Assembly (NCBI GenBank): GCA_030641185.1
Contig: DAOWHY010000035.1
Span: 1 to 55,025, forward strand
Length of the DNA: 55,025 nucleotides
Reading direction: 5' to 3'
DNA from: Candidatus Moraniibacteriota bacterium
GTDB lineage: Bacteria > Patescibacteriota > Minisyncoccia > JAHIHE01 > JAGLIN01
Shown: one piece after another, positions 8,609 through 32,954 of the stretch
How positions within the stretch are numbered: the first letter of the stretch is position 1
Layout: each line of letters opens with the position of its first letter
The notes under the pieces: generated by a model
Seen by the model: the letters and a program-made list of their open reading frames with translations, nothing else
What the model was told of the DNA's origin: nothing
The model's database searches: none
Made by a program: the position numbers and the translations under genes

Positions 8609-8956
8609 ATGAAGCATAAAATAAAAGGAAGACAATTTAAGAGAAGCAAATCACAAAGAAAAGCTTTGTTGAAACATTTGACAGAAGCGCTTGTTTTACA
8701 TGAAAAAATTACGACAACAACAGCTAAAGCAAAAGAGCTTTCGGTTTATGCGGAGAAGTTAATTACGACGGCGAAGAAACAAAATCTTTCTTCGGCGAAA
8801 GCGATTCACGATATCTTAGCGGATAAACCAGCGAAGAAAATGATCAATGATATTTCTAAAAAATATAAAAGCAGAAACGGCGGATACACGAGAGTTATAA
8901 AAATCGGGGAAAGAAAAGGAGATGTCGCGGAGATGGCGATTATAGAATTGGTGTAA
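8609..8956 (+). CDS. rplQ: 50S ribosomal protein L17
   Basis: MKHKIKGRQFKRSKSQRKALLKHLTEAL..HEKITTT.AKAKEL ... GGYTRVIKIGERKGD. Confidence 0.95.
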   Translation: MKHKIKGRQFKRSKSQRKALLKHLTEALVLHEKITTTTAKAKELSVYAEKLITTAKKQNLSSAKAIHDILADKPAKKMINDISKKYKSRNGGYTRVIKIGERKGDVAEMAIIELV

Positions 8957-9010
8957 TAATTGGAGTTCATTTTTTAGAGTGTAGGAAGAGTGTAGAAAGT
9001 TTAATTTAAA

Positions 9011-9131: not shown

Positions 9132-9557
9132 ATGTCAGTAAATAAAGATAATAATAGAACAAACAAAATAAAAAAGCCAGAAAGGGATTGGCATCTTTTT
9201 GATGCGCGAGAGGAAAGTTTTGGGAGGATGGCTTCAAAAATCGCTGTTTTGTTGAGGGGGAAAAATAAAGTGGATTTTGCTCCGCATATAGACGGCGGGG
9301 ATTATGTTGTGGTAACAAATTCCGATAATTTGAAATATACGGGAAATAAAGGCGAGGGGAAAATTTATTACAGATACAGTGGTTATATGGGCGGACTAAA
9401 AGAAATAAATTTAAAAGATAAAATTAAAAAAGATTCCAGAGAGGTGATTAAAATAGCAGTTTACGGAATGTTGCCAAAGAATAAATTAAGAGACGAAATG
9501 ATTAAAAGACTGAAAGTTTACAAAGACGAAGATTATTTAGAGAAAGATAAATTTTAG
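9132..9557 (+). CDS. rplM: 50S ribosomal protein L13
   Basis: WHLFDAREESFGRMASKIAVLLRGKNK..F.PH.D.GDYVVVTN ... GMLPKNKLRDEMIKRLKVY. Confidence 0.95.
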   Translation: MSVNKDNNRTNKIKKPERDWHLFDAREESFGRMASKIAVLLRGKNKVDFAPHIDGGDYVVVTNSDNLKYTGNKGEGKIYYRYSGYMGGLKEINLKDKIKKDSREVIKIAVYGMLPKNKLRDEMIKRLKVYKDEDYLEKDKF

Positions 9558-15834: not shown

Positions 15835-15997
15835 GGAGTTCAGGTTTTAACCTGTAAAATTTTACGCACTACGACGGTGCCATAGTCCAAAACGGAGCCG
15901 CAGCGTAGTGAGGCTGTGGCACTGCATTTGCAAATCTTGCATTTGGGATTCCACAGCTCTGCGGAGACTATGGAACCCTCGGCGGAGTGAACTCCAG
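15835..15997. mobile_element. composite family E/D MITE-like element, 163 bp
   Basis: Outer inverted repeats GGAGTTCAGG / (C)TGAACTCC(AG), with family D hairpins inside. Confidence 0.8.
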
Positions 15998-25440: not shown

Positions 25441-25465
25441 GGAGTTCAGGTTTTAACCTGTAAAA
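25441..25465. repeat. family E solo end (GGAGTTCAGGTTTTAACCTGTAAAA)
   Basis: Identical over the first 25 nt to 15835-15859. Confidence 0.8.
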
Positions 25466-31265: not shown

Positions 31266-32954
31266 CTAAATCCACTTTACCATATATCCATCTTCAAGTC
31301 TATATCCCAATTTCCGATAATAATCTCTTACTCCCACACCGCTAATGACGGCGATTTTTTTTAGATTAAATTCTTCTTGTGTAATTTTTTCCGCTTCCAA
31401 AATTAGTTTTTTTCCCAGTCCAATATGCTGGGGAGATTTTTTGTTTTTAGATTTTATTGGCATCATTTGTCCATAAGTGTGAACCTCACGAATGATGGAC
31501 TGGAGTTCAGGTTTTAACCTGTAAGGCTTACATTCTAAAGAGTGAACTTCGGAATTGATTCTCAATCTCAACAATGAATAAAGATTCTTTCTTTCTCTGT
31601 CTTCAAAACTCAAGAATATTTCTTTGCCATCAGAAGCGTTATAATCTTGGCGGAATAATTTTAAATTTTTAGATGCCGCAAATTTATTTCTTATCTCCCG
31701 ACATCTTATGCATTTACATTGCCAGCCTTCTTCTTCTGATTTTTTCTTTAAAACCTGTCTTAAATTAGAAACTTTATTTCCAGCAATTATACTTGTTGAC
31801 GGAATATCGCGAATGAGGCGAGTAATACGGACATAGTAGGGCATCATCTTTTTTATTTCCGCTAATAATTCTATCAGTTTTTTGTCAGAATATGGTTTAT
31901 ATTTGCCATTTTTCCACCACTTATAAATAGATGAGTCTTTAACCACAACGCACGGGTAAATTTTTAGCATGTCAGGTTGGAAGTTTGGATTGGAAAATAA
32001 TTCTTTAAACATTTCTAAATCTCTTTTATAATTTGATCCCGGAAGATTCGGCATCATATGATAATTTATTTTAAACCCGGCTTCTTTCAATAATCTTGTC
32101 GCTTCAATCGTCGTGGCAACAGAATGTCCGCGTTTGTTTAATTTTAAAATGTCGTCATAAATACTTTGAATGCCAAGCTCAACTCGCGTCGCGCCCAATT
32201 TTCGCATGCTAATAATTTCTTTCGTGTCAATATAATCCGGCCGCGTTTCAAGAGTTAAGCCGATAATTCTGTGCTTTGATTTCTCGTTTGTTTTTTGAAG
32301 TTGGAGCAGAGTATGTTTAACGATGTCCGACGACGAAATCCTCCACGCTCCCTTTGTGAAAGAGGGAGTCGTGCTTCCCCTTTGTAAAAGGGGGCGGGGG
32401 GGATTTCGTCGGTCGATTTCATTACATGCCCGAAAACATTCTTTCACAAACCACGTTTGATATTGTTTTGGAAAATATGAAAAAGTCCCACCCATGATGA
32501 TCAATTCAATCTTGTCTGTTTTATGTCCGGTCGCTTCAAGCGATTTTATTCTTGCCGCCACTTGTTTGTAAGGATGAAAGTCCGTCAAAATCGCTCGCAT
32601 CACTGCCGGTTCATTTGATAAATAACTCTTCGGCATATCTTTTTCCGTCGGGCAATAAACACAAGTTCCGGGACAAGCGTATGGTTTTGTTAAAACGGCA
32701 ATAACTGCCACGCCGGACAATGTCCTGATATTTTTAGTTATCAAAAGATTTTCAATATTTTCATTCGGCTTTATTTTTTTATTCTTTACCATCTTTCTAT
32801 AAACTTCCAAAAGTTCAATGTTTGTCGGATTTGGCAAGCTGAATTTCTTTGAAGCTTTTCTTTTCAATTTCAAAAAATACTCATTCTGATTTTTGATGGG
32901 GATTTTTTTGAGGAGTTGTTTGATGATGTATTCGTTGATCATAAATTTTGACAT
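31266..32954 (-). CDS. elp3: Elp3-type radical SAM / GNAT acetyltransferase (tRNA U34 carboxymethylation enzyme homolog)
   Basis: Radical-SAM cluster motif CPGTCVYCP, IMGGTFS, GLTLETRPDYI, VELGIQSIYDDILKLNKRGH, HMMPNLPGS. C-terminal GNAT: IIREVHTYGQ, QHIGLGKKLILEAEKI. Two palindromic repeats are inserted in frame. Confidence 0.9.
   Translation of the reverse strand: MSKFMINEYIIKQLLKKIPIKNQNEYFLKLKRKASKKFSLPNPTNIELLEVYRKMVKNKKIKPNENIENLLITKNIRTLSGVAVIAVLTKPYACPGTCVYCPTEKDMPKSYLSNEPAVMRAILTDFHPYKQVAARIKSLEATGHKTDKIELIIMGGTFSYFPKQYQTWFVKECFRACNEIDRRNPPRPLLQRGSTTPSFTKGAWRISSSDIVKHTLLQLQKTNEKSKHRIIGLTLETRPDYIDTKEIISMRKLGATRVELGIQSIYDDILKLNKRGHSVATTIEATRLLKEAGFKINYHMMPNLPGSNYKRDLEMFKELFSNPNFQPDMLKIYPCVVVKDSSIYKWWKNGKYKPYSDKKLIELLAEIKKMMPYYVRITRLIRDIPSTSIIAGNKVSNLRQVLKKKSEEEGWQCKCIRCREIRNKFAASKNLKLFRQDYNASDGKEIFLSFEDRERKNLYSLLRLRINSEVHSLECKPYRLKPELQSIIREVHTYGQMMPIKSKNKKSPQHIGLGKKLILEAEKITQEEFNLKKIAVISGVGVRDYYRKLGYRLEDGYMVKWI
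31503..31550. repeat. 48-nt internally deleted family E element, in frame inside elp3
   Basis: GGAGTTCAGGTTTTAACCTGTAAGG...AGAGTGAACTT keeps both ends of the 163-bp element at 15835-15997. 48 nt equals 16 codons, contained within the SEVHSLECKPYRLKPELQ stretch on the minus strand. Confidence 0.75.
32331..32411. repeat. 81-nt palindromic element in frame inside elp3
   Basis: Terminal inverted repeats CGACGAAATCC / GGATTTCGTCG enclose two hairpins (CTCCCTTTGTGAAAGAGGGAG; TCCCCTTTGTAAAAGGGG). 81 nt equals 27 codons. This is the only copy in the window. Confidence 0.65.

Follow-up and report, generated by a model that had tools for sequence, protein, structure and literature searches.

A REP doublet in the Elp3 gene of a Moraniibacteriota bacterium, probably translated in place of the native linker

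Repetitive extragenic palindromic (REP) sequences, their inverted doublets (REPINs) and the REP-associated tyrosine transposases (RAYTs) that go with them in 'REPtrons' are well described (Bertels & Rainey 2011, PMC3116915; Ton-Hoang 2012, PMC3333891; Messing 2012, PMC3479197; Quentin 2018, PMC6006769). When REPs insert inside genes, they may be harmless in flexible loops (Quentin et al., PMC6006769). In-frame intragenic REPs are also well described, as are Rickettsia palindromic elements (RPEs; Ogata et al. 2000, via Di Nocera et al. 2013, PMC3733652, and PMC10969869). Our full-text literature search returned no paper connecting Patescibacteria with REP- or RPE-type elements. Here we describe a REPIN that lies in frame in the Elp3 gene of Candidatus Moraniibacteriota bacterium, on a stretch of 55,025 nt (contig DAOWHY010000035.1; hereafter the window). 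The window is contig C30 of the query assembly, G000, which has 554 kb in 38 contigs and is 70% complete.

The segment is a full-length REP doublet made of two inverted 23-nt hairpin units of a RAYT-associated family. We give a probability of roughly 0.8 to the reading that this REPIN is translated, by prediction as EVHSLEC-K-PYRLKPEL(Q), and has replaced the native linker of the protein. The features concerned are the following.

31266-32954, minus strand: Elp3 gene, 562 amino acids (aa), a radical-SAM and GNAT/KAT tRNA U34 cm5 enzyme (open reading frame and TIGR01211).
31502-31550: REP doublet (REPIN) in Elp3, 49 nt by family consensus, in frame.
31502-31524, plus strand, antisense to Elp3: A-type REP unit GGAGTTCAGGTTTTAACCTGTAA, without mismatch to the family consensus.
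31525-31527: spacer GGC of 3 nt between the inverted units, read from the sequence.
31528-31550, minus strand: decayed B-type REP unit, GAAGTTCACTCTTTAGAATGTAA (consensus GGAGTTCACTCTTTAGAGTGTAA).

On the plus strand, positions 31502-31550 read GGAGTTCAGGTTTTAACCTGTAA-GGC-TTACATTCTAAAGAGTGAACTTC. The coding strand gives E469-V-H-S-L-E-C-K-P-Y-R-L-K-P-E-L484 and the first base of Q485: the B unit is read as EVHSLECK (residues 469-476) and the A unit as (Y)RLKPEL(Q) (residues 478-485), in the sole stop-free frame for a doublet in this orientation. The segment joins two β-strands of the acetyltransferase domain and directly precedes the catalytic R-E-V-H strand. An earlier note on this DNA had placed a repeat just before the strand IIREVHTYG, and the sequence bears this out. 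The same note gave the repeat 48 nt, or 16 codons. Positions 31503-31550 are indeed codons E469-L484, but the left end of the consensus lies one base further out, for a total of 49 nt; the figure of 16 codons reflects where the borders were drawn, not the element itself.

We scanned the G000 assembly with the pattern GGAGTTCA-NNN-TTTA-NNN-TGTAA, allowing no more than one mismatch among the fixed positions and leaving the six N free. About 24 units were found, against 1-5 weak matches in base-composition shuffles. The free stem positions form three complementary pairs in 23 of 24 units, the exception being the Elp3 B unit, and at least six stem triplets occur (GGT/ACC, GAC/GTC, CTC/GAG, CAC/GTG, CGC/GCG and GAT/ATC). 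Complementary free positions with varied triplets mean that the unit is a hairpin of 5 bp whose stem has undergone compensatory changes; the folding energy of single units is −3.0 to −3.5 kcal/mol. There are two main types, A (CAGGT-TTTA-ACCTG) and B (CAC.C-TTTA-G.GTG), and inverted doublets commonly consist of one of each, with spacers of 2-4 nt (C11, C27, C23) or of about 25-30 nt (C4, C16). In the Elp3 B unit one fixed position and one stem position have changed, and two of the three variable stem pairs remain. Other members in the assembly are listed here.

25441-25463, plus strand: solitary intergenic A-type REP unit.
8962-8984, plus strand: degenerate solitary unit, GGAGTTCATTTTTTAGAGTGTAG.
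C23:4387-4436, C27:5016-5064, C4:11576-11646, C11:8882-8929 and C16:1525-1600: other doublets, from the pattern scan.

Three of these five doublets measure 48-50 nt, similar to the Elp3 copy, which is 89% identical to the C27 doublet over 47 nt. For the C23 doublet, which is intergenic, the predicted fold is a single long hairpin (−12.4 kcal/mol, z = −5.0). Of 24 genomes in the taxonomic family, 17 have units, with an unchanged A consensus; relatives of the query carry 2-31 copies each, and a control with the reversed pattern gave 0. Elp3 units are present in nine genomes, each of which has the family, whereas the seven copy-free genomes have no unit in Elp3.

The 23-mer GGAGTTCAGGTTTTAACCTGTAA is present without mismatch at 31502-31524, 15835-15857 and 25441-25463, and none of 100 shuffles gave any match. 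With this 23/23 identity and an intact reading frame, the claim of a repeat-derived segment in frame in a conserved Elp3 holds. Could the likeness instead be a chance resemblance of native Elp3 sequence, or a chimera that arose during assembly at a repeated 23-mer? Repeat-free relatives do encode IPELQ with CCTGAACTCC at this position, and metagenome assemblers can mis-join at repeats. However, chance leaves the 23/23 match and the second, inverted unit unaccounted for, reading frame and Elp3 homology run on without a break on both sides of the segment, and the doublet stands at the matching codon position in independent assemblies (G001, G011, G012, G018) and in about 20 database proteins. 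The independent assemblies already contradict this explanation, to which we attach next to no credence.

The host gene is intact and under purifying selection. It scores 609 bits with the TIGR01211 profile (cut-off 350), and its top matches among solved structures (PDB) are archaeal, bacterial and eukaryotic Elp3 chains, with E-values down to 1e-140. Every position that is invariant in 89 aligned homologues is retained. Against relatives, the ratio of non-synonymous to synonymous substitution rates (dN/dS) is 0.10-0.16, with dS of 0.30 for G001 and 0.8-1.2 for G002, G011 and G018, and saturated for G012.

The family can be paired with an enzyme on contig C11.

C11:8952-9491, minus strand: RAYT gene, 180 aa, starting MFKPHYPPHHYFDNKVYFITART (NF047646 and Pfam Y1_Tnp).

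Its product scores 89 bits with NF047646 (REP_Tyr_transpos; cut-off 80) and 37 bits with Pfam Y1_Tnp, and has the HYH and YIHHN motifs. One unit (9514-9536, minus strand) lies 30 nt upstream of the start and an inverted one (8944-8966, plus strand) overlaps the stop; with the adjoining doublet C11:8882-8929, the complete REPtron spans C11:8882-9536 (L045:1431-2085). This is the textbook REPtron layout. Orthologues with 50-61% identity in G014, G022, G010 and G017 (L046, L047, L048 and L049) are flanked by GGAGTAGC-hairpin-GCGC. Units beside these orthologues read GGA-GTAG-C plus hairpin, that is, with the canonical GTAG foot; GTAG there and GTTC in G000 together indicate a REP family with a changed guide tetranucleotide, and, judging from the sequences compared, foot and enzyme lineage appear to have changed in step. 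Patchy presence and absence of units at fixed sites among close relatives is indirect evidence that makes the RAYT a candidate for their mobilisation.

A second RAYT gene of G000 (C9:684-1112; 87.5 bits, above the NCBIfam cut-off) has different flanking hairpins, GGGAAC-TGGTTTGTAACCGG / GGGAACGGGTTGCAAACCCGC, and is presumably the enzyme of another REP family. Several weaker RAYT-like genes are also present. These genes fit the many unrelated repeat families of this genome.

We define the linker as the stretch between the strands LRLRI and (I/L)(I/V)RE.H, and compared it in the genes of 30 relatives and in 120 database homologues. Its length is 14 aa in M. infernus, 16 in human, 17 in D. mccartyi and 18 in yeast. 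Repeat-free relatives among Patescibacteria (NSEETKIKHFIPELQDAA) have 18 aa, and the query (NSEVHSLECKPYRLKPELQS) has 20, from which it follows that the doublet occupies the place of the native linker. The net change against repeat-free relatives is only +2 aa because the native linker is gone, and the doublet does not make an extra surface loop. The earlier note had proposed a net insertion of 16 codons and an alignment with Dehalococcoides, archaea and relatives as its check. In such an alignment, the lengths (20 aa against 18 in repeat-free relatives and 14-18 in Dehalococcoides, archaeal, yeast and human proteins) speak for replacement of the native linker, not for a net insertion. Five states can be told apart among the homologues.

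State 0: native linker, ...KHFIP(A/E)LQNAA.
State 1: one B unit plus native linker, GVHSLECKNS..IIPALQNAS or GVQTLVCKNL..FPALQDAT.
State 2: doublet plus native linker, ...YRLKPELQ-LSNRFSNNLSALNNAA, then IIREVH.
State 3: doublet fused to (A/S/T)IIREVH, in the query, P0002-5, P0008, P0013, P0015, P0018/19, P0026/27 and P0048.
State 4: linker nearly lost, ENNTA, in P0009.

In the fused state, the REP-encoded P482-E-L484-Q485 aligns with the native P-x-L-Q, and the column of L484 is at least 90% conserved in the 89 homologues.

P0009 (524 aa, 82% identical) has a linker of five residues, LRLRIN-ENNTA-IIREVH, in an otherwise intact Elp3, so the linker may be largely dispensable. The same loop holds other repeat-derived peptides in L012, L013, L015, L036-L038, L020, L011, L016 and L033, with up to about 55 extra residues; their types are VIARSEATWQSQ..., ..PP.PFAKGG.. 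and ..QAPH.VWSQH...

The earlier note had derived the segment from a longer element of the window, which it classed as a MITE (a miniature transposable element with inverted repeats).

15835-15997, plus strand: 163-bp 'family E' element, composed of an A unit, a nested foreign palindromic repeat and a B remnant.

Its parts are an A unit (15835-15857), an interior of about 127 nt and 11 nt left from the end of a B unit (GAGTGAACTCC, 15985-15995). Interior positions 64-148 match C29, C37, C12, C11, C6 and other contigs on both strands, without REP termini. Since this interior recurs alone elsewhere, it is an independent palindromic repeat that sits inside a doublet or has displaced part of it, and the 163-bp element is a derived composite, the Elp3 copy the basic form.

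An internally deleted 163-bp MITE, inserted as 16 codons with SEVH and REVH as its scar, would account for the resemblance of the segment's ends to both termini of the 163-bp element, and for 16 codons between suitably chosen borders. Several results already contradict it. Both termini were said to be retained: the left one is, at 23/23, but the right ends have no more than some 10 bases in common (GAGTGAACT.C), and the segment closes there with a complete, slightly decayed second unit. The other five doublets are found without any 163-bp form, some of them at the same 48-50 nt, and the 163-bp interior is a repeat family in its own right. The linker exceeds that of repeat-free relatives by just 2 aa. 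The near-duplicate peptides SEVH and REVH are both there, but they are no scar: SEVH (GAAGTTCAC) belongs to the repeat unit, as its head, GGAGTTCAC occurs in every B-type copy, and R-E-x-H is invariant in 89 of 89 aligned Elp3 proteins, repeat-free ones included. Finally, the sequences flanking the copies showed no target-site duplication and the associated enzyme is a Y1/HUH RAYT, which makes REP/REPIN, and not MITE, the correct class. We regard a deleted MITE as very improbable.

The two halves of the REPIN have fared differently. Across five genomes with the doublet in Elp3 (dS from 0.3 to saturation), the A unit is invariant in 22 of 23 columns. This ties with the best of the gene, where only 3 of 1300 windows of 23 nt reach 22/23 and the mean fraction of invariant columns is 0.58. 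The B unit is invariant in 13 of 23 columns, about the gene average, and its changes are mostly non-synonymous.

An AlphaFold2 model built with 89 homologues (mean predicted local distance difference test score, pLDDT, 87; predicted template modelling score, pTM, 0.86) falls below a pLDDT of 50 only at residues 184-207, which belong to a second repeat site described below as site A, and at 471-478, the B-unit half with the spacer. The A-unit half (479-485) is modelled more confidently, residues 482-485 forming a short helix that leads into strand 486-493 (R489-E490-V-H492). In the alignment, the repeat linker falls on residues 366-381 of Dmc Elp3, ahead of the R-E-L-H strand. We considered the acetyl-CoA blocking loop as the repeat site and rejected it: that loop is Dmc 390-406 and follows HVYG (PMC6367351). 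The molecular-tunnel paper (PMC13315578) makes no mention of this Elp3 linker.

On a tree of 70 proteins, built with both repeat sites masked, at least 11 changes are needed to account for presence of the unit, and at least 8 for the fused state. In approximately unbiased (AU) tests, forcing all fused rows together costs 387 log-likelihood units and all A-unit rows 551, although the p-values are overstated, as the groups were named after the tree had been seen. This distribution would reflect either recurrent hitting and remodelling of the site, or short tracts moving between alleles or genomic copies. In relatives, the two repeat sites of Elp3 also hold at least three further types of repeat-derived peptide (VIARSEATWQSQ..., ..PP.PF.KGG.. 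and ..VETRHCLVST..); the linker site is a general landing pad for several repeat families.

The following history is proposed for the REPIN. A unit or doublet would have landed upstream of the native P-x-L-Q-N-A motif, a state still seen in relatives (...YRLKPELQ-LSNRFSNNLSALNNAA-IIREVH). The now redundant native stretch would then have been deleted, fusing the repeat's PELQ to (A/S)IIREVH. From there the B-unit half, in a disordered loop, would drift, and the A-unit half, now supplying structure, would be conserved. Conservation of the A unit even at synonymous sites suggests that it is refreshed by re-insertion or by gene conversion from the genomic REP pool.

It is also conceivable that Elp3 retains the repeat because of what it does as DNA or RNA, for example as a hairpin for mRNA stability or translation or as a RAYT or gyrase site, and not because of the peptide. 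The constancy of the A unit fits, since 22 of its 23 columns are invariant, synonymous sites included, at dS from 0.9 to saturated; so do its intact hairpin (5 bp, −3.5 kcal/mol) and its equal conservation in lineages that still have the native motif. The B unit, however, has lost its hairpin (0 kcal/mol), the Elp3 doublet as a whole folds weakly (−5.2 kcal/mol, z = −1.3), and the close relatives P0009, P0011 and P0014 do without the unit or the whole linker. Copies of the family are moreover conserved equally well across genera wherever they are located, and turnover from a master copy fits the data just as well. We consider such a function unlikely.

A stronger version of the replacement reading is exaptation: YRLKPELQ would have taken over the role of the native H-F-I-P-x-L-Q-N-A, including the near-invariant leucine, the native stretch would have been deleted, and this would have happened recurrently. 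In addition, the constancy of the A unit would point to site-specific re-insertion or gene conversion by the RAYT/REP system, or to a hairpin function in the gene or mRNA. It builds on the transitions to the fused state counted above and on the rejected monophyly, with the same reservation about groups named after the tree was seen. We offer it tentatively, as a possibility with the odds against it.

Several observations weigh against the reading that a REPIN of a RAYT-associated family has replaced the linker. The hairpin foot in the G000 units is GGA-GTTC-A, and the REP-typical 5' GT[AG]G is absent. G001 and G002, with about 30 units each, have no close orthologue of the C11 RAYT at E <= 1e-10, except a paralogue with 27% identity, which leaves the flanking arrangement as the sole ground for pairing enzyme and repeat. 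As 49 nt, the consensus length, cannot be divided evenly into codons, there must be more to the event than a simple insertion in one step. No exact empty site for the Elp3 copy was found, as the relatives nearest to the query that lack this repeat either carry a different one (P0014, P0011) or have lost the linker (P0009); the borders of the insertion and the order 'insert, then delete' are therefore drawn from relatives in intermediate states. Lastly, in the repeat-free genus g5 (L029, L030) the native IPELQ/IPELR codons are CCGGAACTCC / CCTGAACTCC and agree with the A unit over its outer 9-10 bases, so that part of the A-unit match could in principle be native sequence.

These g5 genomes with PELQ-like codons lack the GGAGTTCA family. 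Their match may be chance, a microhomology that guided rearrangement, or an old relic; as a microhomology, it might have favoured the rearrangement at this site. Native CCTGAACTCC as the whole source of the A-unit match was rejected, a full A unit and the native motif coexisting in L023, P0006, P0010 and P0017.

The REPIN is not the only in-frame repeat of its kind in this genome.

32318-32424: site A, a second, unrelated palindromic repeat with 51-nt arms that are 73% complementary, in frame at Elp3 residues ~183-214 (RNPPRPLLQRGSTTPSFTKGAWRISSSDIVKH).
C16:1525-1600 (L055:1525-1600): second REPIN of the family, 76 nt, in a 448-aa U32/TrhP-like gene.

Site A has inner hairpins CTCCCTTTGTGAAAGAGGGAG and CCCCTTTGTAAAAGGGG and copies on at least nine other contigs. 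It is common to G001, and absent from G002 of the same genus and from the Elp3 chains of the PDB; with about 30 additional aa, it is an extra loop. The C16 REPIN is read in the same frame as the Elp3 copy, as GVHSLEC...YGLKPELQ (GVHSLECNSSKFKQCESSYGLKPELQ). A doublet has one stop-free frame per orientation, and only when its spacer is a multiple of three, which explains why Elp3 and the U32-like gene share the frame. The 26 aa of this REPIN are absent in G001 and G002, of the same genus, whose loops are 13-20 aa shorter overall; here too the repeat makes an extra loop. G009 and G016, of other genera, have a REPIN at the same U32-like loop.

REP/RAYT elements would thus be active in the tiny genomes of Patescibacteria and reshape a core tRNA wobble-modification enzyme right beside its catalytic strand, and selfish DNA could, beyond adding loops, overwrite a native segment and encode a conserved structural motif. 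The ~120 homologues form a natural series, from the native linker through one unit, doublet plus native and fused states to a nearly deleted linker, which can be used for testing the need for the Elp3 linker and the target choice of REPs. Annotators of proteins from the Candidate Phyla Radiation (CPR) have in such repeats an explanation for odd loops of low confidence and for variation in length.

The family found here shares several features with described REP/REPIN-RAYT systems: a short unit that forms a hairpin and has tens of copies in a genome, frequent pairing of units as inverted doublets with the capacity for a longer hairpin, a Y1/HUH RAYT between two inverted units, co-variation of repeat and enzyme between genomes, and no target-site duplication seen. 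It differs in the foot (GTTC here against the canonical GT[AG]G, which RAYT-flanking units of related genomes have as GTAG), in its very short (5 bp), AT-rich stems, in its host, a Patescibacteria genome of ~0.6-1 Mb with the family spread over at least 11 genera, and in that some genomes have the repeats but no close orthologue of this RAYT. With IS200/IS605 insertion sequences (IS), whose subterminal hairpins are recognised by TnpA, it has in common two hairpin types, A and B, at opposite ends, comparable to left and right ends, and an enzyme family (Y1, as TnpA) that acts on single-stranded DNA without target duplication; unlike there, no transposase gene lies between the hairpins and the RAYT for this family is apparently single-copy in G000. 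Classical MITEs are likewise small and non-autonomous with inverted ends, but they would be set apart by the lack of any target-site duplication seen here, by the lack of an identified parent IS with a DDE transposase, and by hairpins that appear to be individually recognised, in place of terminal inverted repeats.

As in intragenic REPs and in RPEs, a palindromic repeat is translated in an intact, conserved housekeeping gene, several genes per genome are hit, dimers encode ~20-30 aa and inserts lie in tolerant loops. The Elp3 case departs from them in having almost no net length gain, the native linker being replaced and the repeat peptide supplying the conserved P-x-L-Q, and in a site that changed state at least 11 times among 70 homologues, through colonisation, remodelling or loss, and that at least three other repeat families have occupied as well. 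The event belongs to a known kind, that of intragenic REPs and RPEs; what is particular here is the GTTC foot, the replacement of a linker instead of an added loop, the differing fates of the two halves, and the dense series of intermediates.

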